64,000 nt of DNA. Origin: an uncultured bacterium (lineage in GTDB: Bacteria > Patescibacteriota > Patescibacteriia > CAIQCM01). The translations under genes were made by a program, and so were the position numbers. Shown one piece after another: positions 2,478-60,809 of this stretch (position 1 is its first letter; every line of letters begins with the position of its first letter). The notes below the pieces were generated by a model, which was not told the origin of the DNA, ran no database searches, and saw nothing but the letters and a program-made list of their open reading frames with translations. The stretch is from contig OY970181.1 in the NCBI GenBank assembly GCA_963708045.1, positions 579,740-643,739 of the forward strand. Direction: 5' to 3'.

Positions 2478-4664
2478 TTATGGAATCATACCCAAGAATA
2501 ATGGTCGCTCGGGAGTTTGGAGTAGTTCCGGTAAAACCTCGGCTGGAACACGAGGTAAGACCTCGGAGATCTGAGGACTCGCCTCAGGAATAGGAAGGGG
2601 CGGCGCGCCGAGCGTGGCGGCGGCAAAAACGTCACTGCTTTGAGTAATAATTTCTATTTTTCCGTCGCCTTGAACATCGCCTGCGGAAACCTTAACGCCC
2701 TTTTTTGAACTTTGCGCAAAGGCGAAAAATTGAACAACTACTTTGTTTTTATTTGTCGGGTCAAAAACGCGCACGTGCGGCCCGCCACCCGCGCCGGCGC
2801 CGGTAATAATCTGTCCGTGTTTAAGGCCGATAATGTCGCCAACGGCCACATAAACGCCGCCTTTAAAGGTTTGTGCGTAAGCGAAGAACTGATATTTAAT
2901 AATACCGCTTCCGCTCCAAGCACGCACGTGCGGCCCGCCACCCGCGCCGGCGCCAGTCACAATTTCAGCGGCCGAATCATTGTCAACATTGCCGACGGCC
3001 AAATGCACGCCGCCTTTAAAATTTTTCGCGTAAGCTAGGAACGATTTAATTTCGTGTCCAGACACATCAAAGATTTTAACTTCTGGTGTTCCACCCGCGC
3101 CAGCGCCTAAAATGATCTCGTTTTTGCCGTCGTTATTCACGTCGCCCACGCCAAATTCCATTCCGTTTTTCCATTTCACGCCAAAAGGTTGCCACGAAGC
3201 AATAGCATTTTTTGCGGAATTATAAATCGTGACGCTGGTTTTGTCGGCGGAAATCGTTTCAATATTTCCATCGGCGTTGATGTCGGTTTCTAAAATTTGG
3301 ACGCCGCCTTTAAAACGATCGTCATAGGCAAAAAAACCGTCGCGTGTTTGTATGGCATTGCTTCCCCAAATACGGACAAATGATCCGTTAAAATAGGCGG
3401 CGCTCGCGATTTTGGCGAGCGGCCGAAGCATAATAAGTCCATCACGCGCCGGAATCGTTACGCTTGAAATAATGGATCCATCGTTGGTTATGCTGTCTTC
3501 GGTGCCGCGGATTTTTTCAAATTCAGAATCAAAAGTAATTGTTTGCGCTTGGTTAGTTGGGTTTACCAAAGCAATGCCTTTTTCAAAATTTCGTTGCCAA
3601 ACGCCGGAAGTAAATTTAATGGCTGTTCCTGTGCCGACGCTCGCGCCGGTAATGGCGTTTTTGGCGAGACCAGTTGGTTTGCCTAAATAAACTTCATATT
3701 CGTCATAGCGCCAGGTTTGTCCGTGATCTTGGTCGCCAAAGTCAAAGCTAAAATAGCCGTCGCCCATAAGCGCGCTTGCAAGCGCGAAGCGCATTTTTTG
3801 ATAATCCTCGCGATTGCCGGTGTTGGCCGTGTTGGCGTTTATAATAAACGCTTCGGGCGCGGCGACGACGGTTAGGTTGGCAACATAGCGGCGCATTATT
3901 TCGTACCAATCACCGTTCGCTTCCCAAGTTGCGGGAAACGATTCAAACATTCGGCCGTTCGTGAGTGGCTGAAACTCGGGCGTTGAAGTTCCGTTGATGA
4001 CGAAAATTTTTTGCGGGTCTAGGCTGCGCGCCGTCTTTAACATTGTAATCATTCCATTTTTCCAAGCCGCATCGGCTGTCTGCGCACCATCATTAATTCC
4101 GTCGCGGTTCAAGTCAACATTGCTGTTATTTACCCAAGAGATGCTATCCGACACCTCGTCGTAAAAAATTCCATCCCATTTTCCGGTGTTTAAAATATTG
4201 TCGTGAACGTAATTGGGCAGGTAAGTATTCCAGCTTGAAGTTGCCGAAAGTGCTTGTGTGCCCGGCCAAACGGAAATTGCGCCGCCGTATGAATCGCGAA
4301 GCCACATTTCGTCGCTAATGCCGCTTTTAAGATTAACGTGCAATGAATCGCCCCAGCCAGTAATGTAACTTTTGGTCGGGACGTAAGCAATTATAATGAT
4401 GTTTGGATTACGGCTTCTTAGTTCGCCAAAAACTTCGGGTTGTGATTCCTGAAGTTCGGCTGGTAAAATTATTAAATCAAACTTAGCGAGCGCCTCGTAG
4501 TCTTCTTGGTACACCAGTTTCATATATGGCACCGCCGTGCGCACAAATTTATCCGTCGGCGTGGCGGCTGATATTTTGGTGATTGGAAATAAATTTAAAA
4601 CAAAAATTATCGCGATAACGCTTTTAAATATTTTAAGGAAATTTTTTATGGGCAGGTTTTTCAT
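2478..4664 (-). CDS. Secreted glycoside-hydrolase-like (TIM-barrel GHL/GH114-type) domain fused to C-terminal FG-GAP/VCBS repeats
   Basis: 728 aa with an N-terminal signal peptide. The central region resembles putative glycosyl hydrolase-like families. The C-terminus has at least 4 repeats of the pattern VGDVNNDGKNEIILGAGAGGTPEVKIFD / AVGNVDNDSAAEIVTGAGAGGGPHVRAW, which is typical FG-GAP. Confidence 0.5.
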   Translation of the reverse strand: MKNLPIKNFLKIFKSVIAIIFVLNLFPITKISAATPTDKFVRTAVPYMKLVYQEDYEALAKFDLIILPAELQESQPEVFGELRSRNPNIIIIAYVPTKSYITGWGDSLHVNLKSGISDEMWLRDSYGGAISVWPGTQALSATSSWNTYLPNYVHDNILNTGKWDGIFYDEVSDSISWVNNSNVDLNRDGINDGAQTADAAWKNGMITMLKTARSLDPQKIFVINGTSTPEFQPLTNGRMFESFPATWEANGDWYEIMRRYVANLTVVAAPEAFIINANTANTGNREDYQKMRFALASALMGDGYFSFDFGDQDHGQTWRYDEYEVYLGKPTGLAKNAITGASVGTGTAIKFTSGVWQRNFEKGIALVNPTNQAQTITFDSEFEKIRGTEDSITNDGSIISSVTIPARDGLIMLRPLAKIASAAYFNGSFVRIWGSNAIQTRDGFFAYDDRFKGGVQILETDINADGNIETISADKTSVTIYNSAKNAIASWQPFGVKWKNGMEFGVGDVNNDGKNEIILGAGAGGTPEVKIFDVSGHEIKSFLAYAKNFKGGVHLAVGNVDNDSAAEIVTGAGAGGGPHVRAWSGSGIIKYQFFAYAQTFKGGVYVAVGDIIGLKHGQIITGAGAGGGPHVRVFDPTNKNKVVVQFFAFAQSSKKGVKVSAGDVQGDGKIEIITQSSDVFAAATLGAPPLPIPEASPQISEVLPRVPAEVLPELLQTPERPLFLGMIP

Positions 4665-4732
4665 ACGTCCAATGTCTAGTGCCTAACAAAGCGGTGTGCC
4701 GCGAAGCGGCGATTCGGATTAGATATTAGAAA

Positions 4733-5038
4733 TTAGATATTAGGTATTTTTTCCTTACTCTCTTCCTTCTTCAACACCGCCGGATTTGGCGAGAATTTTT
4801 TGTTGCTAATCTTCCAACTGCCGACAAATTGGCCAATCCCTTTTGCTTCGGATTTGTTTCTAACGTGCGCCGAAGCCTGCGACCATTTTACGAGCGACTC
4901 AAAAGAGATCTTATACCTATTTTGGACAACAACATAATTAAGCAGACCACTTGAAATAGCCCTACGGACGGTGAGGGCGCTAACGCCAAATAGTTTGGCG
5001 GCTTCGGATACGGATAGTCTAATGATGTTGTCGGACAT
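4733..5038 (-). CDS. Excisionase/MerR-type helix-turn-helix DNA-binding protein
   Basis: LSVSEAAKLFGVSALTVRRAISSGLL is an Xis-family HTH motif. The start is placed at the internal Met (MSDNIIRL), because the upstream 15 codons overlap a REP-like 'tggttcatgg' repeat. The ORF-track start is 5083. Confidence 0.5.
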   Translation of the reverse strand: MSDNIIRLSVSEAAKLFGVSALTVRRAISSGLLNYVVVQNRYKISFESLVKWSQASAHVRNKSEAKGIGQFVGSWKISNKKFSPNPAVLKKEESKEKIPNI

Positions 5039-5099
5039 TGTCGTTAGGGGATAGGGGCTAGATATGAACCATGAACCATCCATATACGCTCCGCGCTAG

Positions 5100-5280
5100 A
5101 TGCTATTTGTGTACGCTAGCGTACACAAATAGGCGGTTTTTGACTGCCTTGACCTTATCAGTTTTTGACCTAAATGTCAACCGTCAAGGGTCAAGGGTAT
5201 AGGGGATAGGGTTTAGTATCTTTCTGCAAACTCTATACACTAAACTATACCCTAACCCCTAAACCACGCGCTTGCCCAAA
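5100..5280. repeat. REP-like palindromic intergenic repeats: a perfect 30-nt palindrome plus inverted 'gggtataggg' arms
   Basis: ctatttgtgtacgctagcgtacacaaatag is a perfect palindrome. gggtataggggatagggtttag ... ctaaactataccctaacccctaaacc are imperfect inverted arms. The same 'accctataccc' family recurs at 21085-21195, 48380-48465 and 49690-49745. Confidence 0.5.
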
Positions 5281-5394
5281 AACCCTATTTGTTGTACTTT
5301 AGAACCACTTCGTTGGAGTCGAAGTCAGCAGAATGTTTGATGTTAGTTGGCAAAATACAATTTTAAAGCTAAATAAAGCGAGAAAAAATCGCTT

Positions 5395-5500
5395 AATTTA
5401 GTTATTTAGAGATAGAGATTAGATGTTAGATATTAGACGTTATGAAGACGAATAACAAACTTCTACATTCCAATCTCTAATCTCCAATCTCTATAGAAAG
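5395..5500. repeat. MITE/REP-like ~90-nt imperfect palindromic element, copy 1 ('agagattagag' arms, core gaagacgaataacaaacttc)
   Basis: Arms tagagatagagattagatgttagatattagacg / ctacattccaatctctaatctccaatctctat flank a conserved core. It is homologous to copies at 6062-6150 and, inverted, at 7222-7312. Confidence 0.55.
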
Positions 5501-5534
5501 GTGTAACATTATCCTCCAGTAAACGATTAACTAT

Positions 5535-6062
5535 ATGAGCAACCCGCTCACTGAGCGGCTTTGGGTGTATAGAATCAAAATGGGTCGGGACCAGAAATCA
5601 TTTGCCGCCATTTATGATCGTTATCTTACCCAAATCTACCGCTTCGTGTTCTTCAAAGTAGGATCAGAAGAAGATGCCAAGGAAATATCCACGGATGTTT
5701 TTATGCGCGCTTGGGAGCATATTTCTTCTGGCAAAGAAGTGACTCATTTAACGGGTCTCCTATATATGATTGCGCGCAGCGCGGTTGTGGATCACTTGCG
5801 CAAAAAAAAGTTTGAATTGGTTTCAATAGAAGACGCGCCAGAGACCGTTGATCAAAGAATGAATTCGGCGATGTCGTCCGAGCTTGGCGACACGCTCGCG
5901 GCGATCAAACTTTTGAAAGAAGAATATCGCGAAGCGCTCCTAATGCGGCACGTTGATGGACTTGGGGTGGGGGAGATTGCGAGCGCACTTGGAAAGACAA
6001 ATGGCAACACGCGCGTTCTTCTACACCGCGCCACGGAAGCGTTAAAAGAAATAATGAAATAG
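5535..6062 (+). CDS. RNA polymerase sigma-70 family, ECF-type sigma factor
   Basis: 175 aa. Region 2 is YRFVFFKVGSEEDAKEISTDVFMRAWE and region 4 is REALLMRHVDGLGVGEIASALGKTNGNTRVLLHRA. Size and motifs are typical of the ECF subfamily. Confidence 0.85.
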   Translation: MSNPLTERLWVYRIKMGRDQKSFAAIYDRYLTQIYRFVFFKVGSEEDAKEISTDVFMRAWEHISSGKEVTHLTGLLYMIARSAVVDHLRKKKFELVSIEDAPETVDQRMNSAMSSELGDTLAAIKLLKEEYREALLMRHVDGLGVGEIASALGKTNGNTRVLLHRATEALKEIMK

Positions 6063-6150
6063 AATTAGTAATAGAGATTAGAGATTGGAAATTAGATTTT
6101 GGAAGACGGATAACAAACTTCTAACATCCAATTTCTAATCTCAAATCTCT
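6062..6150. repeat. MITE/REP-like palindromic element, copy 2
   Basis: tagagattagagattggaaattagattttggaagacggataacaaacttctaacatccaatttctaatctcaaatctctaatc. The reverse complement of copy 3 is near-identical across the ~45-nt core. Confidence 0.55.
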
Positions 6151-6162
6151 AATCAAGTAAAA

Positions 6163-7221
6163 ATGACCAACAAGGAAATAAAAAATAAACTCTCCGCTCT
6201 TGCCGCCCTAAAGGCGACAGGGGAGCCGAACGCGCTCTGGGTAACCGAGACGCGCGCTTTGCTTATGGAAAAAATTTCCTCGTCCAAGGCGGCTCCAGTA
6301 ACGGCGGCACAAGAAATCATCAAACTGCCGCGCGTTGGATTTTTTCCAAAACTAATGTTTGCAATGCGTCCGCTTATGGTTGTTGTTTTGGTTTTTGGTT
6401 TTGGTGCTTTTGGATATTTTGGAAGCATTGGCGCGATCGCTTCGTCGCTTCCAGGAAACAAGCTTTATGGATTTAAAACAATGGCCGAACGTGCTGAGCT
6501 GACTTTCGCGGCGTCCGATGATGCGCGCGCACTTTTGCATGCCGACTTTGCCTCACGCCGCGCTTCCGAAGTAGCGGCTTTGGCCGAAGCCGGTTCTGGT
6601 GCATCAGAAAAAAATGTTGCTGCGGCAATGGCCAATCTTACTCATGAAATGAAAAATGTAAGTGAAACAATGAAGGCGGTTACAACGGATTACGGCGCTG
6701 GTGCGGTCGCAATTGCTAAGGCTGTTGATCGTAAGGCCGCCGAAGTACGGACGATTATTGGCAAGACAAAGTCAATGCTTTCTTTGGCTTCAAAAGATCA
6801 GGTTCAGTCGGTGGAAGATATGGCTGACGATCTTTCGCTTCAAGCCGTGGCCGTGCTTGCCGCCGCACCTGCTGACAAAAATGACGACGTTAAAAATCGC
6901 GTTCAGGAAAATATAAACAGCGTTCAGAAAAAATTAGAAATCGCGACGCCAGAAGGTGCCGAAGAACTTAAGGATGCCAAGGCGGCCAAAGCCGCGCTTA
7001 CCGCGGCGCAAAAAGCCGCTGATAGCGCGGACTATATTGGTGCAGTAACCAAGGTTCAGGAAGCGGTTTTGCTAGCGACGCCCGACAAGGCGACAGTGGT
7101 TGACACAACAACCGTAAACGTAAATGCCAACACGCCAAAAGTTGAAACGAATGTTAATGCAAACACCAACACCAACACAAATACTAATCAGCCTGCCAAA
7201 ATTAAAGCCATTGATTTGTAA
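6163..7221 (+). CDS. DUF5667-like membrane protein, putative anti-sigma factor partner of the upstream ECF sigma
   Basis: It sits immediately downstream of the ECF sigma. The N-terminal cytoplasmic segment (MTNKEIKNKLSALAALKA...) is followed by a single TM helix (LMVVVLVFGFGAFGYFGSIGAI) and an Ala-rich helical periplasmic domain. The tail is low-complexity NVNANTNTNTNTN. This architecture matches DUF5667 proteins paired with sigma factors. Confidence 0.55.
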   Translation: MTNKEIKNKLSALAALKATGEPNALWVTETRALLMEKISSSKAAPVTAAQEIIKLPRVGFFPKLMFAMRPLMVVVLVFGFGAFGYFGSIGAIASSLPGNKLYGFKTMAERAELTFAASDDARALLHADFASRRASEVAALAEAGSGASEKNVAAAMANLTHEMKNVSETMKAVTTDYGAGAVAIAKAVDRKAAEVRTIIGKTKSMLSLASKDQVQSVEDMADDLSLQAVAVLAAAPADKNDDVKNRVQENINSVQKKLEIATPEGAEELKDAKAAKAALTAAQKAADSADYIGAVTKVQEAVLLATPDKATVVDTTTVNVNANTPKVETNVNANTNTNTNTNQPAKIKAIDL

Positions 7222-7312
7222 ATTTAAAAAAAGAGATTAGACCTTAGAGATTAGATGTTAGAAGATTGTGTCCGTCTTCTAAAATCTAATTTCCAATCTC
7301 TAAGATCATTCC
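7222..7312. repeat. MITE/REP-like palindromic element, copy 3 (inverted orientation)
   Basis: Its reverse complement is ggaaattagattttagaagacggacacaatcttctaacatc..., which matches the copy 2 core. Confidence 0.55.
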
Positions 7313-7322
7313 TGATTCCGTC

Positions 7323-7500
7323 TTTCATTTTGTTTTTAAAACAAAATGAAAGACGGAATCGGGATAAATCCCGTTTTCTTTAAAAAATAATTCCGCCGTT
7401 CTGGCGCAGGACTCTTTACACGAAATTTTTGCGTAAAGAGTCCTGCGCACTAAAGAGCGGCGGGCTTGATTCGTCAAAGGTTGAATCCCGCTCGCCGGGA
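7323..7500. repeat. Cluster of three near-perfect long hairpins in the 5' region of the giant surface-protein gene
   Basis: Hairpin 1 is ccgtctttcattttgtt-tttaaa-aacaaaatgaaagacgg (17-bp perfect stem). Hairpin 2 is cgggat-aaa-tcccg. Hairpin 3 is gcgcaggactctttac...gtaaagagtcctgcgc (16-bp perfect stem) nested in ccgccg...cggcgg. Confidence 0.45.
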
Positions 7501-7553
7501 AGTCACTCAAGTAACTTAACTATTCTTAAATAAAAAGAAAAAATTTCATCAAT

Positions 7554-10500
7554 ATGACAGATGCATTAAAACTGTCGTACGGTGTAATGAAGCGCTCCTT
7601 CACGGTTGCCGTGGTGATTGCGACCATTCTTTGGTCCGTTGCCGCGACTTTTGCCGTTGCCCCTCGCGCCGCTCATGCGGCGACCTCGGGTGACCTCGTG
7701 AAGGGCTCGCTCTCGGCTGTCTACTATGTAGGCTCCGACAGCAAGCGCTACGTTTTCCCGAACGACAAAGTGTACTTTACTTGGTACACCGATTTCTCCA
7801 CGGTTAAGAAAATTTCCGACACTGACTTGGCTGCCCTTACAATCGGCGGCAACGTTACTTACAAGCCAGGTGTAAAAATGGTCAAAATCCAGTCTGATCC
7901 TAAGGTTTACGCCGTCGGTCACGGTGGCGTTCTCCGCCCGATCGCTTCGGAAGCCGCCGCCTCCGCCCTCTACGGCTCCACCTGGAACAAAAAGATTGAC
8001 GATATCTCCGACGCCTTCTTTGTGAACTACACTGTTGGTTCGCAAATTTCGTCCGCTTCGGACTTTGTTATCGCCACTGAACAAGCCAACTCCACCTCAA
8101 TCAATACCGACAAGGGTCTTTCCGGCGCTGGCGCGCTTAACATCTCGCTCGCCTCGGACAACCCAGCTGGTTCAACACTTACCTGCAATGCTTCTGGTGT
8201 TAACTTCCTAAAAGTTAATCTCTCGGGCACGGGTACAGTTACTGGCCTCACCTTCCACCGCATTGGTGCTGGTGTTGCCGCTGACTTTAGCAATGTCTAC
8301 CTTTACGATGGAGACACTCGCTTGACCGTTGGCCGCTCGGTGACTTCTTCCGACAACTCGGTTACGTTCTCTAACTTGAACGTTGCCGTTTCCGGTTCAA
8401 AAGAACTCACTTTGGTTGCTGACCTTGCCGCCCTCACCGCCTCCACCGCAACCCCCCCCTCCGCTTGTGTTGCTCTTGCTGGCGACTCCAACGCTTTTGC
8501 GATCAATGCCGCGACCGATGTTGTTACCAACACGACCGTCGGCGGTACCTTCCCAATTGCGGGCGGTTACTTCTCAATCGCTGCTTCTAAGAGCGGTACG
8601 CTTGCCGTTACTCCGGGTTCTGCTCCGTCCAACCCAAAGGTTGGTCAGCAGGCTGCTGAACTTGCCAGCTTTAAGGTTCAGGCTGGTTCATCCGAAGACG
8701 TGATTCTTCGCCGCATCATTGTGACCAACGCGGGTTCTGCCCAGTTGGCCAACCTTGCTAACCTAAAGATTACGGATGCCGGTACAATCATCGCGCAAAA
8801 CCCGATTATTTCGGGAACGACCGCGACCTTTGTGCTTGCTGTCCCATACACTTTGGGCAAAGGCATTCAACGCACGCTCTCGCTCGTTGGCGACGTCCTC
8901 GCGGCTAACCGCGCTGGCGTTGACACGATCAAGTTCTACATTGACCAGACCTACGACGTCTACGCCACTGGTTCCACTTACGGAATGGGCGTGAACGTGA
9001 CCAACACCTTCACTACGGGCAACTCGCTCAGTATTGATGGCGGTCAGATCACTTATGCGTTTAATGGTCCGACAACCGGCAATATCTCGGTTGGCGCTAA
9101 CGATGCTAATCTCCTCAAGTTCGCGATTACTTCGCAGAACAATATTGAAGTGAAAAGCACGACCGTTCGTCTCACTTTTAGTGCTGACGTTTCGGCCGAT
9201 ATCGCTAATGTCACTGATATTAAAATCAAGAACGCCGACACCGGCGTTGTTGTCGCTGGTCCGTTTGACCTTTCGTCCTGGACTGGTTACACCGATGCTA
9301 CTTTCGTAACCGTAGACGCCACGCCGTCACAATGGTATGCCAAGACGTTCACCGATCGCTACGACGTTTCGTCGGGCAAAACGGTTAACTATGTTGTCTC
9401 GGCTGACATTTTGACCACTGGCACGGGTCTCGCCGCCAAATCCGTTACGGCGACCCTCGCCGCTCGCGTTGGCACCAACATCCGCAATATGGATTCCAAC
9501 CTGGATGTTGCCACAACCGATATCGTCCCGGCCTCTGCCCTCGCTGGCAATCCGCAGACGGTTAGCGCTTCTGGTTTGACCGTTGGTCTTGCGAGCTCGC
9601 CTTCAACAGCGACCGTAACCAAGGGTTCTACCGTTAACGCGGTGGGCATCAACTTTACCGCCGGTTCTGCGTCGGACGTTAAAGTTTCTCAAGTTAAGCT
9701 CTATGCTTACATCAACCTTATTAATGGTGATGAAGTCTTGGGCGTTTCGGATGTTGACAGCACAAGCGCGACTCACTATTCCGCTGACTTGGTTCAATCC
9801 GTTTCCATCTGGGACGGTACGACCCAGCTTGGCACCACGCAGTCGCCTTCGGCTGGTCTTCTGACCTTCTCTAACCTTGCGTGGACTATTCCCGCCGGCA
9901 CCACCAAGACGCTTGTTGCCAAGGTAACTTCCTCCAACAACGCGCCTTATGGAGCTCAAACCAACCACATTGTTATTGACTTAGTTGGTACGGGCGATGA
10001 CAACACCACGTCAGACATCGCCGCGACTGACAAGGACACCAACACTGTCTCGGCGACTTCTACAGCTTGGTCTTCTACACAAAGCCACTTGAACACCACG
10101 GCCGCCAATGACACTGCTTGGGGTACCAACGGCGCTCCAGCTGTTTATGACGACATTGTTGCTTCGGGTTCGCTTACTATGAGCCTTGATGGCGACACAC
10201 CAGTTACTTCCATTGTTACGGCCAACACTAACGACAACTCGGTCACCCGCGTTAAGTTTAACTCGGTGAACGAAGCGTTCTTGGTTACCCGTTTGACTGT
10301 GGAAAACGTTGGTTCTATCGCTTCCAGCCGCTCCATTACTTCCGTCCGCGTCTATGACAAAGATGGAACCTTGGTCTGCTCGGGCGCGCTTGATTCCGCG
10401 AACCGCTTGCGTTGTGCAAACGACGCCGGTCTCTTCACGGTAAATGGTAACCACACGGTTACCATCAAGACCAACCTTGCTCAGGAAGGCTCTGGTACAA

Positions 10501-12186: not shown

Positions 12187-12261
12187 AGTAAACATACTCC
12201 GCCACGCAACCCTCACCCGGCCTTCGGCCACCCTCTCCCACACTTGGGCGAGGGTTTTACG

Positions 12262-12306
12262 TTTACACCCTCCCCCGAGTGCGGGGGAGGGGCTGGGGGA
12301 GAGGGT
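12262..12306. repeat. GC-rich hairpin repeat, right direct repeat flanking the DUF559 cassette
   Basis: tttacaccctcccccgagtgcgggggaggggctgggggagaggg. It is a near-identical direct copy of 11754-11797. Confidence 0.7.
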
Positions 12307-12469
12307 GTCGTTGGTGGTGTATACCCAAAATAATTGTGGATAACTAGAAAAATATTTAATTCTTAAAAAGGAGTATAATAATAATCGGACAAGTTGAAGT
12401 CCGTAAAAATTTATATTTTATCCGCGGGATTAACCGCGATCAATTTTAAATCTTAAATAAAAAAGATTT

Positions 12470-14950: not shown

Positions 14951-14981
14951 GTTTTTACCCTCGCCCGAGTGCGGGAGAGGG

Positions 14982-15063
14982 GAGTTCGTTTCGCCGTAAA
15001 TAACTTTAACGTAATAATACAGAACTCTCCCCACCCTCCCTTTTACCAAAGGGAGGACTAAGA
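14982..15063. repeat. 83-nt structured intergenic repeat, copy 1
   Basis: gagttcgtttcgccgtaaataactttaacgtaataatacagaactctccccaccctcccttttaccaaagggaggactaaga. It contains the ggagttc/gaactcc stem and the ctccctttt-acc-aaagggag hairpin. It is identical to 15197-15279. Confidence 0.7.
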
Positions 15064-15196
15064 CTTTTTGCGCTTTGTCACTTTCTTTGTAAAAAAGATT
15101 TAATTTGAGAATTTTGTATTTGCCCCTTCTTTGCATAATAGCAGGGTTTTATCTGTAACCAGTCTTAGTCCACTCTTTGCAAAAGAGGGGGTAGGG

Positions 15197-15279
15197 GGAG
15201 TTCGTTTCGCCGTAAATAACTTTAACGTAATAATACAGAACTCTCCCCACCCTCCCTTTTACCAAAGGGAGGACTAAGA
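15197..15279. repeat. 83-nt structured intergenic repeat, copy 2
   Basis: Direct repeat of 14982-15063, separated by ~130 nt of unrelated sequence. Confidence 0.7.
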
Positions 15280-15414
15280 TTGTTGTTGAATATTTGTTAA
15301 TAACAATTGTGTTCTAAAAGTGGTATAATAAAAAACCGGACAAAAAGTCCGTGAAATTAAATTTAAAACAGGGGATAAATCCCTGAATGATTTTAAATCT
15401 TAAGAAAAAGATTT

Positions 15415-18400
15415 ATGAACGCAGTTTCAAAATTAAAATTTTTTAGCGCTAACCACAAGGGGTTGGTTTTTGCTTTTTGTTTTGTTGTGGCCGTGCTTGC
15501 CTTTGTTGCCCTGCCGACGCATAAGGCAATGGCGGCGAACGGCGACATCGTTGTCAATGTTAAAGAAGAGCTGGGAAGCAATCTTGCTGGCGCGACAGTT
15601 GAAATTAATTGTAGCGGCGGCAGTTTTGTGGCCAACGTCGCCCCGACTGACGCTTCAGGTAATGTGACTTTTTTGGTGGCTGACCTTGGTGATTCTGGCG
15701 GCGCGACTCTTTATCACACGGCCGATTGCGACACTAATGCCGAGAGTATCACTTATCGTGTGTCCAAAGATGGATACGTTACTCAAACTACCGGTGGTGC
15801 TGACACATATTTAACGGGAGCCGAAACCGACAAAAATATCACCGGTGTTCAGTTCGCCTACAAACTCACAGCTGTCACAACCGAAGGACCGGGGACAAAT
15901 ATCACAGCGACACTTTCTTCGCTGGCGGTTGGCGCTTCTGGTGCAACCGACGCCTGTACTTTAAATGGCGGCGCTTGGTATTGTCCGGTAACACTCGCCC
16001 ATAGCGTGGGGCCGCTCATTGGCGTGCCAACGCAAGATGGTTATGTACAAGCCAATTACAATTTAGTTACTGGCACAACGCGTAGCGCTAACGCCGACGC
16101 GCAAGTTTCGGACACAATCAGCACGGTTCGTTTTTCCTATAAAATAACATCGGCGACGAGCGAAATCGGCACTAACATCACGGCAATTTTGACAACACTG
16201 AGAGTTGGCGACGATACGGCCACGAACGCTTGCACTTTCTCGGTTGACGCTTGGTATTGTCCAGTCATTCTCGCCAATAGCAACGGTACGCTTAAGGCCG
16301 ACCCAGTTAAAGAAGGTTATGTTCAAGCTGACCACAATTTGGTTCTGGGCACAACGCGCGTCGCGAGCTCTGACGCTCAAATAACTGATTCTTTCACTGG
16401 TGTTCAATATGCATACAAAATAACCTCTGCAACTTCTGAAGCTTTAGCAGTCAATCTTATTTCTACATTAAGCGCGCTTGCCGTTGGTGACGCGACCGCG
16501 ACCAACGCTTGTGAAACCTCGGGTGGCGCTTGGTACTGTCCGGTTGTTCTCGCAAATAGCGACGGCACGCTTCTTGGAGTTCCTACTCAAGACGGCTATG
16601 TGCAAACAAATTACAATTTGGTAATCGGTACAACTCGTGTTGCTAATAATGCATTGCAGATATCGGACACGATCGTTAATGTTCAATACGCTTACAAAAT
16701 TACTTCCGTTACAACCGAAGGCCCAGGCACCGAGCTCCGAGCCACCTTGTCTTCGCTCACGGTTGGCGATGATACCGCCAAAACCGCCTGTGCATTAAAC
16801 GGCACGACTTGGTATTGCCCGGTTATCCTTGCGAACAGCAATGGCACACTTGTCGGCGTGCCAACGCAAGACGGGTACGTATCGGGTGATGATAATTTGG
16901 TAATTGGTACAACGCGCGTTCTTAATACGGCGGCGCAAGTTTCGGACACAATTAGCACCGTTCGGTTTGCTTATAAAATAACCGCGGTTACGGCTGAGGG
17001 TCCGGGAACAAATATTACTGCGACACTGGTTTCGCTTGCAGTTGGCGACGATACAGCTACGACACTTTGTACTTTCAATGTTGCGACTTGGTATTGTCCG
17101 GTTATTCTTGCAAATAGCGATGGTACATTAATTAGTATCCCGATCAAAGACGGTTATGTGCAGGCTAATTATAATTTGGTTCTAGGCACGACGCGTCTTA
17201 CGGCCGCTGCGGCGCAAGTTTCAGATACAGTAACTGGTGTTAGATTTTCTTATAAAATCACTTCGGCGACGAGCGAAATCGGCACCAATATTACCGCAAT
17301 TCTTACGACGCTCGCGGTTGGCGACGATACGACAACAAACGCCTGTGCATTCTCGGTTGATGCTTGGTATTGTCCAGTCGTACTCGCGAACAGCAATGGC
17401 ACGCTAAAAGCCGATCCGGTTAAAGAAGGCTATGTTCAAGCCGACCATAATTTAGTTCTAGGCACAACGCGTCTTGCTAATCTAGACGCTCAAATTGTTG
17501 ATTCGTTTACTGGTGTTCAGTTTGCTTACAAAATCACTTCCGTAACTGCCGAAGGTCCTGGCACCAACCTTACCGCCACCCTCGCTGGTTTAGTTGTTGG
17601 TGATGTTACGGGAACCGATACCTGTATTTTAAACGGCGGCGCTTGGTACTGCCCAGTTGTTCTCGCAAATAGCGACGGCACACTTCTCGGCGTGCCAACG
17701 CAAGATGGTTATGTGGCGGCAAATAATAATTTAGTGATTGGTACGACTCGTGGCACAAATGCTGCCGCCCAAGTTTCTGACACAATTACTGGTGTTGATT
17801 TCGCTTACAAAATCACCGCCGTTACCACCGAAGGGCCTGGTACCAACCTTACAGCGACACTTTCTTCGCTCGTGGTTGGTGACGATACTGGTACAACGGC
17901 CTGTGCTCTTAACGGTGGTGCTTGGTATTGTCCGGTTTTGCTTGCAAATAGCGACGGCACGCTTATCGGCGTGCCAACGCAAGATGGTTACGTCGCGGCT
18001 AATAACAATTTAGTGATTGGCACGACGCGTATTACTAACGCTGCGGCGCAAGTTTCTGACACGATTAGCACGGTTAAATTCTCATACAAACTTACAGCCA
18101 TTACCACCGAAGGGCCTGGTACCAACCTTACAGCGACACTTTCTTCGCTCGTGGTTGGTGACGTGACGGGAACCAACGCTTGTATTTTAAATGGTGGCGC
18201 TTGGTATTGTCCGGTTTTGCTCGCGAATAGCGACGGTACGCTTATCGGCAATTTGGTTGAAGACGGTTATGTGCAGGCAAACTATAATTTGGTTAATGGC
18301 ACAACGCGCGCCGCGGCCGGCGATCCACAGCGCACTGAAACTATTAACACGGTTCAATTCGCTTATAAAATTACAGGAGCGACGACAGAAATTAGCACCG

Positions 18401-21079: not shown

Positions 21080-21120
21080 CGTAGCGTATAGGGGTTAGGG
21101 TATAGAGTATAGAAAAAAGA

Positions 21121-21151
21121 AAAAACCTCCGATTTTTATCGGAGGTTTTTT
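21121..21151 (+). terminator. Rho-independent terminator embedded in REP-like inverted repeat
   Basis: aaaaacctccg-atttttat-cggaggtttttt. It is flanked by the inverted arms tataggggttagggtatag / ctagcccctaaaccctataccctag. Confidence 0.7.
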
Positions 21152-21241
21152 ATTCTAGCCCCTAAACCCTATACCCTAGACGCTAATAGTAAGTTGAAAT
21201 AATCTTCTTTACGGAGTATTCTTATTAAACAATGCTATCCT

Positions 21242-23513: not shown

Positions 23514-24677
23514 GTGGAAGAAGAAATAAAAACTAAAAAATTTCCTCGGCGTTCTATTTTTGTCTTAGCGGTTGCGTTGCTTATTTTGGGCGCGGCGGTT
23601 TATTGCTATCCGCGCGCCGTTGCCGATCGCGCCGTTCCACCTTTGGTTGTAGAAAAAGCGCCGCGCACTAATCATCTCGCTGTCCCGTCCGAAGTCAGAG
23701 CAATTTATATCACGGCGGAAATGGCAGGAAATGAAAAAAGATTTTCGGAAGTTGTTAATTTGGGCAAAAGCCGCGGGATTAATTCTTTGGTGGTTGATCT
23801 AAAAAATGAAAACGGTTCGCTCGCATTTTTGCCCAAAAACGAAACGTTAAAAGCCGAGATTGGGAAAAATGTTCCGCTCGGCGACCTTGGTGTTTTTGCC
23901 GATAAAGTTCATGGCCTCGGTTTGTACCTTATCGCGCGAATGCCGGTTTTTGAAGATCCGAATTATGCAATTGGACATCCGGCCTTTGCCTTAAAACGTT
24001 CCGGCGGCAAACTATGGACTGACGCGAATGGTTTGGCTTGGCTTGACCCGGCTTCGGAAGACGTTTGGAAATATAATTCCGCCGTGGCGACGGAAGCGTA
24101 TACGCTTGGTTTTGATGAAATTCAGTTTGACTATATCCGTTTTGCGACCGACGGCGTAACCTCGGCGATCGTTTTTCCGGTCTATGACAAAAAGAAAGAA
24201 ACATACCGACAAGTTATTTCTCGTTTCTTTTCATTTCTTGATTCCGAACTTCGCGCCAAAGGAATTCCAATCTCGGCCGATGTTTTTGGTTTTGTTACTT
24301 GGCACCAGTCGGACTTGGGCATTGGCCAGTGGTACGACGACGCCATAAGAACGATGGATTATGTTTCGCCGATGGTTTATCCGTCGCATTATCCATCGGG
24401 CGTGTTACAATTTAAAAATCCGGCCGCTCACCCGTACGAAATAATCGCTGACTCTTTAAAAAAGGGGAACGAAGTTATTTCTTTGGCCGCGAAAGATCCG
24501 GATCTTAAACTTGCGACGCAACGTCCGTGGCTGCAAGCCTTTGATATGGGCGCCAAATACACGCCCGAGTTGATTCTGGCCGAAGTAAAAGCCAGCCGCG
24601 ACAATAACGCCTCCGGTTTTATGTTCTGGAACGCCAGAAACGATTACTCTAATCTGCCGGTACTTACTAATCTCTAA
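23514..24677 (+). CDS. Putative glycoside hydrolase-like protein (DUF4015/GHL TIM-barrel type), membrane-anchored
   Basis: 387 aa. An N-terminal TM helix (IFVLAVALLILGAAVYCY) is followed by motifs RAIYITAEMAG...GINSLVVDLKNENG...FDEIQFDYIRF, which resemble the putative glycosyl-hydrolase DUF4015 family. Confidence 0.45.
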   Translation: MEEEIKTKKFPRRSIFVLAVALLILGAAVYCYPRAVADRAVPPLVVEKAPRTNHLAVPSEVRAIYITAEMAGNEKRFSEVVNLGKSRGINSLVVDLKNENGSLAFLPKNETLKAEIGKNVPLGDLGVFADKVHGLGLYLIARMPVFEDPNYAIGHPAFALKRSGGKLWTDANGLAWLDPASEDVWKYNSAVATEAYTLGFDEIQFDYIRFATDGVTSAIVFPVYDKKKETYRQVISRFFSFLDSELRAKGIPISADVFGFVTWHQSDLGIGQWYDDAIRTMDYVSPMVYPSHYPSGVLQFKNPAAHPYEIIADSLKKGNEVISLAAKDPDLKLATQRPWLQAFDMGAKYTPELILAEVKASRDNNASGFMFWNARNDYSNLPVLTNL

Positions 24678-24708
24678 TTTCAAATCTCTAATCTCTAATT
24701 CCAAAAAT

Positions 24709-30330: not shown

Positions 30331-32427
30331 ATGCCAAAAGATTTTATTTTACCTTCAAACGAGTCGCTCGCGCCGATTGATTTTTCGGCCGCGCTTAATG
30401 CGGAACAGCTCGCGGTTGTTAAAGGCGCCGACGGCGCGAGTTTGGTTATTTCTGGCGCTGGATCGGGCAAAACGCGGACAATTATTTATCGGGTGGCATA
30501 TTTGCTGAGCCTTGGCGTGCCGGCCGAAGAAATTTTACTGCTAACTTTTACGAACAAAGCGGCGCGGGAAATGCTTTCGCGCGTTCAAGAATTGCTGGGC
30601 GGCGTCTCGGGCAAACTCACGGGCGGCACTTTCCACCACGTCTGCAATTTGTTGCTTCGCCGCTATGCGCCGCTTATTGGTTTTAAAAATAATTTTTCTA
30701 TTTTAGATCAAGAAGATTCGCGCGACCTGCTTAATGCTTGTATTAAAGACGAGGGGATAGACACTAAGCAAAAGCGTTTTCCCTCGGCTGGCGTTCTCCA
30801 GTCTTTTTGGAGTTTTTGCCGGAACGCGCGGCTGCCGTTTTCGGAAGTTGTTGAATTAAAAGCGCCGCGACTTCAAGCTGAAGTTTCTAAAATGGAAGCG
30901 GTTATTAGTGCTTACGAAAAGCGCAAGCAAGACGCGAACGCGATGGATTTTGACGATTTGCTTTGCCGCGCGACCGATCTTCTGCGCCAGAATCCGTCGG
31001 TGCGCGAGCACGTCGCAGGTGGTTATCGCTATGTGCTTGTAGACGAATATCAAGACACCAACCGCGTGCAAGCCGAATTTTTATCGCTCATCTCTTCGGT
31101 TCACAATAATTTGTTAGTCGTTGGCGATGACGCGCAGTCAATTTATTCGTTTCGCGCCGCGGACATAAAAAATATTTTATCCTTCCCCGAACGCTATCCG
31201 GACGCGAAGGTTTTTAAATTGGAAACCAATTATCGTTCCGTACCGCCGATTTTAGATTTTGCGAACGAATCAATAAAAAATAACGCCAAGCAATTCGCAA
31301 AAGTTTTACGGCCAGCCAACTTGCAACCTGAAACCTGCAACCTGCAACCAAATATAATAACCGCGGCGAGCGCCGAAGAAGAAGCGGAGTTTATCTGCGG
31401 AATGATTGAAAAAATGGTTAAAGAAGGAACGCCGCTAAGCGAAATCAGCGTTCTATTTCGCGCCACCTTTCATTCACAGGCGCTGGAATTTGCCTTAACA
31501 AAACGCGGTCTGGCCTATGATTATCGCGGTGGCATTCGTTTTTTTGAACGCGCTCACATTAAGGATGTAATTTCTTTTTTACGAATTCGTGAAAATCTTG
31601 ATGACGAAATTGCTTGGCTTCGTGTTTTGCGTTTGCAAACCGGCATTGGCACCGAAACAGCCTCAAAAATTTTTTCCGCCTGCCGCGGTTTTGAAAAATT
31701 TGAAGAAGCGCTCGCGGCCGGCGCCGCGGGAATGGGGGATCGCGCTAAGGGCGGTTGGAATGATTTTGCCAATTCGGCGACTTCAATGATCGCTGCTGGC
31801 GGAAGCCCGTCCGACGCAATTAGGGCGATTATCAAATCGGCCTATGGCGATTATTTGGATAACGAATTTCCCAACGCCGATGAGCGGCGCGAAGATCTTG
31901 AACAGTTGGCCGTGTTCGCGGAAAAGTACGCCTCGGTTGGCGCTTTTCTTTCCGACAGTGCTCTTACTGAAGGATTTAATATTGATGCTAGTGCTAGTAC
32001 AAATGAAGATCGGCTGGTTCTTTCCACGATTCATCAGGCCAAAGGTTTGGAATGGGACGCGGTTTTTGTAATGCATCTTTATAACGGCGCTTTCCCGCAC
32101 GCCCGCGCTTACGAAGAGGATGATGGGCTAGAAGAAGAACGCCGGCTGTTTTATGTAGCTGCGACGCGCGCCAGAAAAAATCTTTTTCTTTCCTATCCGC
32201 TTACGGGCGGCCGCGGCGAAGATTATTTGCACGAGATGTCACCATTTTTACGTGAACTGCCCGCAACCGTTTACGAAGAAATTGTTCTTCGCCGCGCGAG
32301 TGCCTCGGGAAGCACGGTATTTAAAGATGATTTTTTTGAAGAGGAAGAAATTGACGTTCTTGATCAGCAGTCTCCAGAGAACAAAGACAAAGATTGGAAA
32401 AAGAAGTCTTTTCTCGGTAATTATTGA
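30331..32427 (+). CDS. uvrD: ATP-dependent DNA helicase, UvrD/PcrA/Rep family (SF1)
   Basis: LNAEQLAVV...LVISGAGSGKTRTIIYRVAYLL has helicase motifs I/Ia. VLVDEYQDTN is motif II. VGDDAQSIYSFRAA is motif III. The C-terminal LVLSTIHQAKGLEWDAVFV and LFYVAATRARKNLFLSY are motifs V/VI. An internal mini-repeat is LQPETCNLQPN. Confidence 0.9.
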   Translation: MPKDFILPSNESLAPIDFSAALNAEQLAVVKGADGASLVISGAGSGKTRTIIYRVAYLLSLGVPAEEILLLTFTNKAAREMLSRVQELLGGVSGKLTGGTFHHVCNLLLRRYAPLIGFKNNFSILDQEDSRDLLNACIKDEGIDTKQKRFPSAGVLQSFWSFCRNARLPFSEVVELKAPRLQAEVSKMEAVISAYEKRKQDANAMDFDDLLCRATDLLRQNPSVREHVAGGYRYVLVDEYQDTNRVQAEFLSLISSVHNNLLVVGDDAQSIYSFRAADIKNILSFPERYPDAKVFKLETNYRSVPPILDFANESIKNNAKQFAKVLRPANLQPETCNLQPNIITAASAEEEAEFICGMIEKMVKEGTPLSEISVLFRATFHSQALEFALTKRGLAYDYRGGIRFFERAHIKDVISFLRIRENLDDEIAWLRVLRLQTGIGTETASKIFSACRGFEKFEEALAAGAAGMGDRAKGGWNDFANSATSMIAAGGSPSDAIRAIIKSAYGDYLDNEFPNADERREDLEQLAVFAEKYASVGAFLSDSALTEGFNIDASASTNEDRLVLSTIHQAKGLEWDAVFVMHLYNGAFPHARAYEEDDGLEEERRLFYVAATRARKNLFLSYPLTGGRGEDYLHEMSPFLRELPATVYEEIVLRRASASGSTVFKDDFFEEEEIDVLDQQSPENKDKDWKKKSFLGNY

Positions 32428-39672: not shown

Positions 39673-40197
39673 ATGGCAAAAACTAGATTACAAAAAGAAC
39701 AAACGCTTGCCGACTTAACGGCGGCTTTTGTGTCTTCAAAATCGGCCGTGATCGTGAACTACCAAGGGCTTAAAGTTAAGGAAGCCGAAGAGCTCCGTCG
39801 CAAGGCCGAAAAAGAAGGTATTGGTTACGTTGTCGCTAAAAAGACTTTGATCACCAAAGCGCTTAAGGCGGCCGGAACCGAATACGACGTGACCGCGCTT
39901 GGCGGTATGATCGGCGTCGCAACGTCCAAAGACGAAGTTGCCGCCGCTCGTTTGCTTGCGGAATTTAGCAAGGCACACGAGTCAATGAAGATTTTAAGCG
40001 CGGTTGTTGATGGCAAAATCATTAACGCCATCGGTGTTCAGGCGCTTGCGTCACTCCCGTCGCGTGAAGTTCTTCTTGCCCAGGTTGTTGGCACGATCAA
40101 CGCTCCAGTTTCTGGATTCGTTAATGTTCTTGCCGGCAATCTTCGCGGCCTTATGAACGTTCTTAATTCAATTAAGGACGCTAAAGTCGCCGCCTAA
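39673..40197 (+). CDS. rplJ: 50S ribosomal protein L10
   Basis: MAKTRLQKEQTLADLTAAFVSSKSAVIVNYQGLKVKEAEELRRKA... is the canonical L10 N-terminus and length (174 aa). Confidence 0.95.
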   Translation: MAKTRLQKEQTLADLTAAFVSSKSAVIVNYQGLKVKEAEELRRKAEKEGIGYVVAKKTLITKALKAAGTEYDVTALGGMIGVATSKDEVAAARLLAEFSKAHESMKILSAVVDGKIINAIGVQALASLPSREVLLAQVVGTINAPVSGFVNVLAGNLRGLMNVLNSIKDAKVAA

Positions 40198-40242
40198 TTC
40201 CTTATTCTAACCTCTAACCTCTAACCTCTAATCTCTATAAAT

Positions 40243-43673: not shown

Positions 43674-43759
43674 AACACACGTCATGAACCTTGTACCATG
43701 TACCACGTACCATACGGATGGTTCATGGTTCATTGTCCATGGTTCATGTTCCATAAAAT

Positions 43760-47269: not shown

Positions 47270-47371
47270 TATGAAGCATGAAACATAAAGCATGAAACAC
47301 TTTGGTCGCCCCGATGGTCATCGGGTGGTATTAATGCTTCATGTTGCGTGCTTCGTGTTTCATTCATAAAT

Positions 47372-48379: not shown

Positions 48380-48480
48380 GGTTTAGCGTATAGCGTATAG
48401 GGGATAGAGTTTTTTCTACACCCCTAAACCCTATACCCTTGACCCTATACCCTAAAGCTCGTCGTTATTTTTTTAATTTT

Positions 48481-49668: not shown

Positions 49669-49729
49669 GTACCTAGGATAAAGTATTTAATCCAAATTCC
49701 TAAAACTCTATACCCTATACCCAAAACCC

Positions 49730-55322: not shown

Positions 55323-55449
55323 ATCTCTGCGAAATAATTATTTATTTCGCCTCAAAAATTAGAACTGATTACCTTCATAATTATTTTCTGTATAATCGTA
55401 CTATCACCTTGGCCGTTTCGGCGAAATAAATAATTATTTCGCAGAGATC
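55323..55449. repeat. Perfect 29-bp inverted repeat pair (stem-loop 1) in the frr-glyQS intergenic region
   Basis: atctctgcgaaataattatttatttcgcc (55323-55351) and its exact reverse complement ggcgaaataaataattatttcgcagagat (55421-55449). The ~70-nt loop contains tataat. Confidence 0.8.
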
Positions 55450-60795: not shown

Positions 60796-60809
60796 AACAT
60801 GCAAAATAC

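Follow-up and report, generated by a model that had tools for sequence, protein, structure and literature searches.

What are the three repeated palindromes that punctuate a small regulatory operon in the genome of an uncultured member of the Patescibacteria, and how have they come to lie there? The operon encodes an extracytoplasmic function (ECF) sigma factor and a DUF5667 membrane protein, the putative anti-sigma factor. It is located in a 64,000-nucleotide stretch of contig OY970181.1 (assembly GCA_963708045.1, positions 579,740 to 643,739), which is referred to here as the window and from whose first letter all coordinates are counted. The palindromes, termed copies A, B and C, lie respectively upstream of, between and downstream of the two genes. 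In a preliminary description they were likened to miniature inverted-repeat transposable elements (MITEs) or to repetitive extragenic palindromic (REP) sequences. We put the chance at roughly one in two that they are paralogous palindromes of heptanucleotide repeats, representing one dialect of a lineage-wide class of simple sequence repeat (SSR) hairpins at gene boundaries, which would turn over by slippage in 7-nt steps and by short-range copying.

Three homologous palindromes at the sigma operon

The genes, repeats and signals of the operon are:

5407-5493, plus strand: copy A, a heptad-armed hairpin with TAGAGAT/TAGATGT-type units in its 5' arm and CAATCTC/TAATCTC units in its 3' arm
5444-5463, plus strand: core and loop of copy A, GAAGACGAATAACAAACTTC, located by pattern search
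5501-5531, plus strand: ECF-type promoter, GTGTAAC-N16-CGATTAAC, separated from the sigma ATG by 3 nt
5535-6062, plus strand: ECF-type sigma factor gene (Sigma70_r2 and r4_2, domain search)
6072-6151, plus strand: copy B, a hairpin filling the sigma/anti-sigma spacer, defined by folding and alignment
6102-6121, plus strand: core and loop of copy B, GAAGACGGATAACAAACTTC, located by pattern search
6163-7221, plus strand: gene for the DUF5667 membrane protein, a putative anti-sigma factor (domain search)
7233-7307, minus strand: copy C, the inverted element, its orientation judged from the asymmetry of the loop
7261-7279, minus strand: core of copy C (reverse complement GAAGACGGACACAATCTTC), located by alignment
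7360-7381, plus strand: hairpin resembling an intrinsic terminator, CGGGATAAATCCCG followed by TTTTCTTT, found by a terminator scan and conserved in the related locus L030

Copies A, B and C are homologous imperfect palindromes, which align with a mean column identity of 81% once C has been reverse-complemented. The 20-nt core GAAGACGGATAACAAACTTC is exact at 6102-6121 and carries a single mismatch at 5444-5463, where zero occurrences are expected by chance; in C the core is inverted and differs by one indel and a few substitutions. Over 33 nt, including part of the loop, B (6078-6110) and C (7271-7303) are 97% complementary, and C is therefore a true inverted paralogue and more than another palindrome. 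All three are predicted to fold into long stem-loops, with minimum free energies of -24.4 kcal/mol for A, -33.8 kcal/mol for B and -26.5 kcal/mol for C (z = -2.2, -6.9 and -5.0, respectively, relative to dinucleotide shuffles). The preliminary description had placed three such palindromes around the gene pair, the third inverted, with shared arms and a shared core, and had proposed that they be folded; on these points it was correct.

Beyond what had been described, the arms prove to be tandem 7-nt repeats, with period-7 rows reported by Tandem Repeats Finder at 5419-5442, 5472-5493, 6072-6096 and 7232-7267. Each copy contains a small core hairpin, GAAG-12 nt-CTTC, whose stem is lengthened by tandem heptads. 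Covariation among the copies amounts to two compensatory pairs only, from three sequences. The arm motif AGAGATTAGAG, allowing up to one mismatch, has 11 matches against 0.31 expected. These include a match at 24686, in front of the gene at 24709, and matches at 40212-40236, between rplJ and rplL, while a cluster of TTAGA lies at 4719-4733; single-arm relatives had indeed been pointed out at the first two places and near 4715-4745.

At the Rfam gathering threshold, tRNAs alone are detected in the whole window and no family is assigned to A, B or C. In E-value mode, the region 4600-7600 yields only sub-threshold matches to generic hairpins of the miRNA-precursor type. A promoter role for the elements was considered and rejected: a sigma-70 promoter scan found one site in the region, against 5.3 expected, and none inside the elements. 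In reverse complement the core reads CCGTCTTC, which matches the -10 region of related ECF promoters (CGTCTTCTA). This is probably a coincidence, since no -35 element lies at the right distance and the sigma promoter of the window itself has CGAT.

A TGTAAC-N16-CG(T/A)(C/T) motif is found a few nucleotides before the sigma ATG in the window, in the related loci L001 and L002 and in seven more distant Patescibacteria loci, L004-L007, L009, L010 and L012. We infer from the TGTAAC-N16-CG(T/A) pattern an autoregulated ECF-type promoter and, across these Patescibacteria, a leaderless or near-leaderless sigma mRNA. Copy A ends 8 nt upstream of the -35 element of this conserved promoter and is thus outside the sigma transcript, whereas B and C are predicted hairpins inside the inferred operon transcript. 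Copy B separates the two genes with 9 nt between the sigma stop codon and the stem and 11 nt between the stem and the anti-sigma ATG; the sigma stop codon itself, TAG (6060-6062), keeps the 7-nt spacing of the TAGs in the 5' arm of B. Copy C is placed in the 3' untranslated region (UTR), between the DUF5667 stop codon and the conserved hairpin at 7360-7381, which is likely to be the operon terminator.

The stretch from C to the next gene holds two more long, near-perfect hairpins, at 7310-7364 (27-nt arms at 96%, z = -11.3) and 7404-7448 (22-nt arms at 91%, z = -7.5). Neither has a 7-nt period, and the region that contains them has a counterpart in L030.

Heptad arrays across the window

Is the heptad organisation peculiar to the sigma locus? 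The window was scanned by autocorrelation, an array being a region with at least 16 of 21 matches at a lag of 7. At period 7 there are 23 arrays, compared with zero to three at any other period from 4 to 12, and under a stricter threshold no period-7 array appeared in 50 mononucleotide shuffles. Twenty of the 23 are mostly intergenic, although intergenic DNA makes up 8.7% of the window (p about 1e-18). Many spacers that the preliminary description had passed over carry arrays of other units, so that TAGAGAT is found along with TAGGGTA, CATGGTT, CATGAAG, CACGTGG and CCACAAG, among others. The arrays are mostly paired, as complementary arms around a loop, and what the arms enclose may be a canonical terminator (21086-21187), a small GC hairpin (47309-47325) or a whole gene (60305-60337 / 60776-60807). 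Copies A, B and C are one dialect of this general class. Other arrays in the window are as follows:

4715-4752, minus strand: single-arm array of the A/B/C dialect, TAGATAT x4 on the plus strand, overlapping the 3' end of the HTH_17 gene
5171-5270, unstranded: hairpin in a different heptad dialect, TAGGGGA/TAGGGTT // CTATACC/CTAACCC, sharing its intergenic region with A
21086-21187, unstranded: heptad arms TAGGGGT.. // CCCTAAA.., enclosing a canonical bidirectional terminator
24666-24705, plus strand: single-arm array CTAATCT/CTAATTT, reaching the ATG of the RDD-family gene at 24709
31315-31354, plus strand: in-frame array of CAACCTG within a UvrD-family helicase gene
40197-40241, plus strand: single-arm array (CTCTAAC)x4, filling the rplJ-rplL spacer and adjoining a start codon
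43682-43750, unstranded: CATGG-type hairpin, filling the spacer before a GT2 gene
47271-47365, unstranded: ATGAAGC//ATGCTTC hairpin in the DUF4012-mreB spacer
48375-48456, unstranded: TAGGGTT/TAGCGTA // CCCTAAA hairpin after mreB
49702-49744, plus strand: single C-rich arm adjoining the GT4 ATG, a direct repeat of the arm at 48413-48456; the pair flanks ORF395
50263-50299, plus strand: in-frame array, CCACAAG x4, encoding the GT4 interdomain linker
60305-60337, unstranded: CACGTGG-type arm, the inverted partner of 60776-60807
60776-60807, unstranded: partner arm of 60305-60337, directly before tRNA-Trp

The arrays inside genes, at 50263-50299 and 31315-31354 in the window and at 9628-9672 in the related locus L022, sit at interdomain linkers. 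They are candidate contingency (phase-variable) sites, because a change of one unit would shift the reading frame.

The sigma locus in related genomes

Relatives of the sigma factor, obtained from a GTDB scan, are all from metagenome-assembled genomes (MAGs) of Patescibacteria and are at most 42% identical to it. The exact sigma protein is on record in only two short Logan contigs, and the window is thus from a lineage of the candidate phyla radiation that has no close reference genome. Exact look-ups of RplL and of MreB (with the GTG start) gave no record; the sequencing runs ERR15459707 and ERR12035931 contain the locus. The relatives, L002 included, have the syntenic gene order HTH_17 - sigma - DUF5667 - large protein. 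In L001, whose DUF5667 protein is 63% identical, both the A-site and the B-site hold heptad hairpins, with the units TAGGGGA/TAGGGTA and GCGTATA/GGGTATA; its A-site hairpin lies directly 5' of a conserved GGTGTAAC...CGATT block. L003 (67% identical) has a B-site built from GGTTGTA/GCTGGTA and a C-site of (GCTTGTA)x6. At this C-site L030 is an orthologue of L003, having the loop and the flanks in common, and the arms differ by exactly +21 and -21 nt, that is by three heptads each. L002 (43% identical) is free of the elements, with an ATGA overlap between the sigma and DUF5667 genes. Neighbouring sites of the sigma locus have a common unit type within each sample. Judging from these comparisons, position and architecture are conserved at the sigma locus and the unit sequence is not. 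Heptad arrays are also present in independent JGI, ENA and NCBI assemblies of related genomes, and they are therefore not an assembly artefact.

Turnover at other loci

Further syntenic loci were recovered by way of DUF4012 and MreB homologues. A metagenome scan with the DUF4012 protein gave one locus, and the MreB relatives bear the source name 'Patescibacteria group bacterium'. Two of the loci, L020 and L021, are 99.99% identical, and L021 and L022 are about 95% identical. In the window, L021, L022 and L023 the DUF4012-mreB spacer is occupied by a heptad hairpin, built in the four cases from four different units. In L025 (MreB 84% identical, 66% GC, no arrays at all) DUF4012 and mreB abut as TAGATG. 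The site orthologous to the hairpin at 43682-43750 holds the same dialect in L020, L021 and L022.

The GT4 linker, which is hypervariable among relatives, is encoded in L022 by an in-frame array of CAATGAA/CAATGGA, where the window has CCACAAG. In L021 the corresponding segment is an unrelated stretch of about 48 nt, between flanks that are nearly identical to those of L022. Since the L022 array replaces these 48 or so unrelated nucleotides and resembles L022's own mreB-upstream array, 1.7 kb away, it points to short-range copy-and-paste. ORF395/ORF401, a gene of unknown function, occurs in the window (48481-49665) and in L021 (11054-12259), but L022 and L023 lack it. Two direct copies of a C-rich heptad arm, 77% identical, lie on either side of it in the window, at 48413-48456 and 49697-49740.

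Three modes of change can be read from these alignments. Arms gain and lose whole heptads, as the exact 21-nt indels between L003 and L030 show; the unit sequence, so far as the loci compared here reveal, turns over far faster than the flanking genes while its position persists; and arrays are copied, in either orientation, across distances of about 1-2 kb. This turnover is probably due to replication slippage by whole 7-nt units, together with template switching or ectopic conversion that acts from arm to arm or from one array to its neighbour; no transposase would be needed.

More distant Patescibacteria MAGs have heptad arrays at low density, at L002 290-323, L007 13655-13703, L015 759-807, L014 3323-3355 and L016 9199-9233; in L002, for instance, (CCTAACC)x3 immediately precedes tsf, and L007 has (ACACGAT)x5. 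Heptad arrays may therefore not be confined to this clade.

Mobile elements and terminators

The existence of three paralogous copies, one of them inverted with a common loop, might be explained by a non-autonomous transposable element, either a MITE or a REP sequence or REPIN (REP doublet) moved by a REP-associated tyrosine transposase (RAYT), which had inserted three times around the sigma module. Similar heptad dialects at non-orthologous loci of different genomes are in keeping with mobility, as are the presence or absence of ORF395/ORF401 between loci about 95% identical and the direct arm copies beside ORF395 in the window. REP-family elements, broadly similar in shape, have been described as miniature mobile DNA (PMC3116915). 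However, A, B and C have neither target-site duplications nor defined conserved termini, their flanks being TTATT/AGAAA, AGTAA/CAAGT and AAAAA/ATCAT, respectively. A search for the core, as had been proposed in the preliminary description, found no further copy in the other 61 kb of the window or in 26 related loci. Three matches in viral contigs all fall in coding DNA without heptad arms and are attributable to chance.

The orthologous sites speak against insertion in a different way. In relatives the three sites are filled by heptad hairpins with unrelated units and loops, and three independent insertions in each genome would be unparsimonious. Comparison of the loci therefore produced no filled/empty polymorphism in close relatives and no pair with clean boundaries; the sole 'empty' locus is the distant L002, in which the genes overlap. 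Moreover, the arms change by heptad steps, and no transposase turned up among the 27 window proteins that were scanned. In view of all this, a transposable origin of A, B and C is very unlikely. Nor does the gene order, syntenic even in the element-free L002, favour the proposal that the repeats helped to move the sigma module.

The likeness to proteobacterial REP sequences, bacterial interspersed mosaic elements (BIMEs) and REPINs is nevertheless real in part. These too are short imperfect extragenic palindromes, which occur at gene ends and in intercistronic spacers, form families and are found in both orientations. Orthologous spacers in related species often hold species-specific versions of REP sequences. 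Unlike REP sequences and REPINs, A, B and C have no invariant GTAG head, beginning instead with TAGAGAT or AGAGATT, and no doublet organisation, and their 7-nt periodic arms change by whole units; no RAYT gene was seen in the part of the window proteins that was scanned. MITEs are likewise small, non-coding, inverted-repeat elements present in several copies, but in the 64 kb available the copies have no target-site duplications, defined termini or dispersed identical copies, and no autonomous partner was seen among the 27 proteins scanned. What survives of the repeat-element description is that the palindromes are repeated, extragenic and copied, with a REP-like placement; their assignment as MITEs does not.

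It had also been suggested that A, B and C act as bidirectional intrinsic terminators or insulators of the sigma operon. The predicted hairpins are stable, the position of A before the promoter and of C after the operon would suit an insulating role, and heptad arms elsewhere (21086-21187) enclose a canonical terminator. Yet a terminator scan of 4400-7700, which reported nine terminator-like sites, including 7360-7373 followed by TTTTCTTT downstream of C, called none of the three, whose stems are AT-rich and lack a T-run. The genome has canonical terminators with a GC-rich stem and a T-run elsewhere, and a separate terminator, conserved in L030, follows C. Copy B, moreover, lies between genes that overlap in the distant L002 and are hence expected to be co-expressed. 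A terminator or insulator function is accordingly highly improbable.

Heptad stems in messenger RNA

If B and C are transcribed, what might they do? Copy B would form a stem of about 35 bp, setting the sigma stop codon and the anti-sigma start codon at the two sides of the stem base, and C would be a 3' UTR stem ahead of the true terminator. B and C may act, if at all, as RNA stem-loops that affect processing, stability or translational coupling of the operon mRNA. Under the slippage-and-copying reading, any such effect would be a consequence of where tolerated hairpins can persist, with no dedicated switch.

A stronger proposal is that the transcribed heptad stems are cis-regulatory RNA hairpins, which act through processing of double-stranded RNA by RNase III or through coupling, and in which the number of heptads tunes the flanking genes and, for B, the ratio of sigma to anti-sigma factor. 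Their geometry is suggestive. At most intercistronic hairpins a stop codon lies 0-11 nt before the stem and a start codon 0-12 nt after it (9 and 11 nt at B, and again 9 and 11 nt at the hairpin at 43680). Similar arrangements are found in L001c and in the hairpins of L020 and L023, while hairpin-less relatives have overlapping or abutting genes. RNase III cleaves stems of 25-35 bp, a size that fits those of the heptad hairpins.

The model for this proposal is the hmw1A gene of Haemophilus influenzae, in whose 5' UTR the heptanucleotide SSR (ATCTTTC)n forms one arm of a long transcribed hairpin, its repeat number being altered by slippage (PMC12721329). Processing of this hairpin by RNase III, and an inverse relation between repeat number and expression, have been shown experimentally (PMC12721329). 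The hmw1A unit resembles the ATCTCTA arm of A, B and C, but its right arm is a non-repeat G-rich segment, unlike the heptad-built arms here. A further difference is that copy A is not in the sigma transcript, and any role of B and C is deduced from sequence.

The window offers a possible second link to RNase III. Between rpmG and tRNA-Trp lies a gene (60394-60750) for a member of the 23S-rRNA-intervening-sequence protein family (PF05635, E = 1e-28), bracketed by the inverted CACGTGG-type arms. Intervening sequences of rRNA are excised by RNase III at stems of this kind, and the arrangement resembles such an insertion with flanks that could pair.

Set against these points, A ends upstream of the promoter and could not act in the sigma mRNA. 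When 14 hairpins were folded on both strands there was no sense-strand advantage, the antisense strand being the more stable in nine. Because C is inverted, it presents the complementary loop, so that loop presentation on the mRNA is inconsistent and no RNA-strand signature is apparent. Arrays also occur inside coding regions. By analogy with hmw1A, a dedicated regulatory role is possible but doubtful.

A periodic TAG core

Several observations weigh against slippage and copying as the whole explanation. In the clade set of 41 arrays, the consensus unit contains TAG or CTA in 26, compared with 11% of random heptads (p = 3e-15), and nine further arrays have ATG or CAT. Units deviate from their own consensus in 7.8% of cases at the TAG positions (28/360) and in 19.8% at the other four (95/480), with p = 6e-7, a value that is approximate as units are not fully independent. 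By position, the deviation in TAG-type arrays is 9% at T, 9% at A and 5% at G, as opposed to 14-26% at the other four, the TAG core being 2-4 times less variable; position 4 after TAG is a T in only 1 of 120 units. In the rplJ-rplL spacer, where three genomes have a single-arm array, TAA at 7-nt spacing is the sole invariant of the alignment, the four intervening positions being wholly changed (CCTC, CCCC/TCCC and AAGT/TAGT). By inspection, every TAG-type two-arm hairpin examined has its TAG arm 5' on the gene-sense strand, and its CTA(A) arm adjoins the downstream start codon. Pure neutral slippage predicts neither the constraint on TAG nor the invariance of TAA nor the enrichment of TAG/CTA, and the consistent 5' position of the TAG arm points to selection or to a directional mechanism. 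In addition, nearly identical arms are found at non-orthologous loci, L001 2557-2595 and L023 5434-5470, which looks like the behaviour of dispersed families. Finally, the census of the A/B/C core and of the arrays covers 64 kb of the source genome.

The periodic TAG (or CATG) core, as the unit statistics suggest, is under some constraint. Its cause could be the seeding of arrays at stop codons, a stop-codon barrier or a binding factor. In two cases, sigma and mreB (the array at 48375-48456), the gene's own TAG stop codon begins the array as its first unit, in phase with the rest.

One interpretation makes the periodic TTAG/CTAA (and CATG) code the functional unit. It might be a binding array for a putative oligomeric nucleic-acid-binding protein, which recognises three XAG-N4 units in the manner of HutP, or alternatively a six-frame stop barrier or reinitiation platform, visible Shine-Dalgarno sequences being few in this genome. 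Protein binding had been among the roles suggested in the preliminary description. The constraint on TAG relative to N4, the invariant TAA at rplJ-rplL, the near absence of T from position 4 and the excess of TAG/CTA all favour such a code. TTAG, furthermore, supplies TAG and its complement CTAA supplies TAA, so that at period 7 three units close all frames on both strands, and on inspection most genes lack an obvious Shine-Dalgarno sequence.

HutP and TRAP-type systems offer a precedent, in which XAG triplets with a 4-nt spacer give a 7-nt period and are read three at a time by a ring-shaped protein (PMC2425495). Each surface of HutP recognises three XAG motifs, with a U4 spacer in the model RNA, and two HutP sites flank the terminator stem in hut RNA (PMC2425495). 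In contrast to the hut sites, which both carry XAG on the same RNA strand, the second arm here is the complement (CUA), so UAG is on the 5' arm alone in the sense RNA. The likeness is a resemblance only, no HutP-like protein or other candidate reader having been identified here. About a third of the arrays, moreover, have no TAG or CTA (CATG-type, CACGTGG and CCACAAG). In-frame ribosomes would already have been halted by the genuine stop codon, which leaves little obvious benefit to additional stops, and the constraint could reflect the seeding of arrays, given the two cases in which the stop codon is the first unit. A functional periodic code is thus unlikely.

In its boldest form, the proposal is that TTAG/CTAA (or CATG) every 7 nt on complementary arms punctuates gene boundaries throughout this Patescibacteria clade, being selected and read by a putative factor or by the translation machinery as a six-frame stop and reinitiation platform, while the four intervening positions drift and homogenise freely. 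Were this so, A, B and C would exemplify a new class of cis-element and could not be regarded as junk SSRs. We regard this version as distinctly unlikely.

Comparison with known heptanucleotide repeats

The best description of the heptad hairpins is that they are a hairpin-organised, TAG-centred variant of the known heptanucleotide-SSR phenomenon. According to the summary in PMC4679880 of a survey by Mrazek (2007), heptamers are the most abundant class of long SSR in most of the genomes surveyed, and polymerase slippage was proposed as their origin. The cyanobacterial short tandemly repeated repetitive (STRR) sequences and the heptamer SSRs of Nostoc and Xanthomonas (GGGGA(T/C)T, GGGAATC) are similar to the present arrays in their tandem 7-nt units, their strong intergenic bias and the occurrence of several unit types per genome, and some form inverted pairs able to fold into stem-loops. 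STRR-type repeats lie mostly between the same genes in related species, with highly variable length and sequence (PMC4692102), and heptad examples are known from the Nostoc hyp operon (PMC2408588). The arrays described here differ in being mostly two complementary arms around a loop, in being short (3-6 units) and in having AT-rich, TAG-centred units where those of STRR are G-rich and form G-quadruplexes. Their host is of a Patescibacteria lineage.

The TAACTGA repeats of marine Beggiatoaceae are heptamer arrays located a few nucleotides upstream of start codons (MacGregor 2015, PMC4679880). Like the present arrays, they are found in ribosomal-protein operons and in spacers without canonical ribosome-binding sites, and have stop codons within the unit (PMC4679880). 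They consist, however, of essentially one unit, mostly in direct repeats, whereas here many units, which have only the TAG or CATG core in common, usually form hairpins.

No description of such repeats in Patescibacteria was found in the literature. In Nostoc punctiforme, small dispersed repeats (SDRs) were reportedly described by Elhai and colleagues in 2008 as very small mobile repeats tied to hairpins and to tandem heptameric repeats. The SDRs are said to be defined sequences of 21-27 nt, unlike the variable heptad arms of the window.

Heptanucleotide repeats have long been noted as the most over-represented class of long bacterial SSR, without an accepted explanation. The lineage considered here offers an unusually clean natural experiment, with dozens of short heptad arrays at defined gene boundaries. 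Their positions hold from genome to genome, their units have been replaced even where loci are about 95% identical, and a conserved TAG core stands out from four free positions. A sizeable share of the scarce intergenic DNA of the window consists of heptad hairpins, placed where translational coupling, mRNA processing and promoter insulation occur, including an ECF sigma/anti-sigma operon and the rplJ-rplL spacer. On the practical side, heptad arrays can be mistaken for MITEs, for CRISPR-like repeats or for terminators, and they cause start codons to be miscalled.

Gene starts and other repeats

Among the mechanical open reading frame calls in the window, the TTG 'starts' at 48439 and 49730 lie inside arrays and are probably wrong. 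The likely starts are ATG 48481 and ATG 49745, the latter giving MLIGIDASRA..., which matches homologues. The mreB gene probably begins at ATG 47372 rather than at GTG 47348, MreB homologues being 335 aa long. A start codon in register with ATG-type heptads is found for the GT2 gene of the window, but not in L020 and not for mreB, so that this is not a general feature. When the 60 nt upstream of each gene were inspected, most genes had no recognisable Shine-Dalgarno sequence and instead an A/T-rich lead such as AAAAT-ATG; a clear GGAGG precedes only a few, for instance the gene at 28883. Canonical extended -10 promoters (TGGTATAAT) and terminators with a GC stem and T-run do occur in the window.

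Upstream of the divergent HTH_17 gene there is a perfect 30-nt palindrome, CTATTTGTGTACGCTAGCGTACACAAATAG, at 5103-5132. Palindromes centred on GTATAC occupy the same place in L001 (about 2412-2441) and L002 (about 9187-9214), and CTATTTGTGTACGCTAGCGTACACAAATAG is likely to be the operator for the HTH_17 protein.

Several repeats of other kinds were also noted. A small GC hairpin, CCCCGATG(G/T)TCATCGGG(G), is found in the loop of a heptad hairpin in the window (47309-47325) and at a different locus in L022 (about 9043-9062), and it may represent another dispersed repeat family. A G/C-rich repeat class containing ...GAGGGGGTAGGGGGAGTTC..., with CTCCC...GGGAG hairpins, is located at 14979-15070, 15195-15285 and 12187-12320; one part of it is a direct repeat, about 90 nt in length, that precedes the large surface-protein gene at 15415. 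In L001, sequences like these lie on both sides of the HTH_17 gene (1870-2010 and 2320-2420). The gene at 55557 is preceded by a spacer in which the two halves of a perfect 27-nt inverted repeat (CTCTGCGAAATAATTATTTATTTCGCC), at 55325-55351 and 55420-55446, stand about 70 nt apart. Lastly, a 279-nt tandem repeat (2.7 copies, about 80% identical) at 17507-18376 lies inside the gene for a 1504-aa Big_5-domain protein and probably encodes repeated protein domains.

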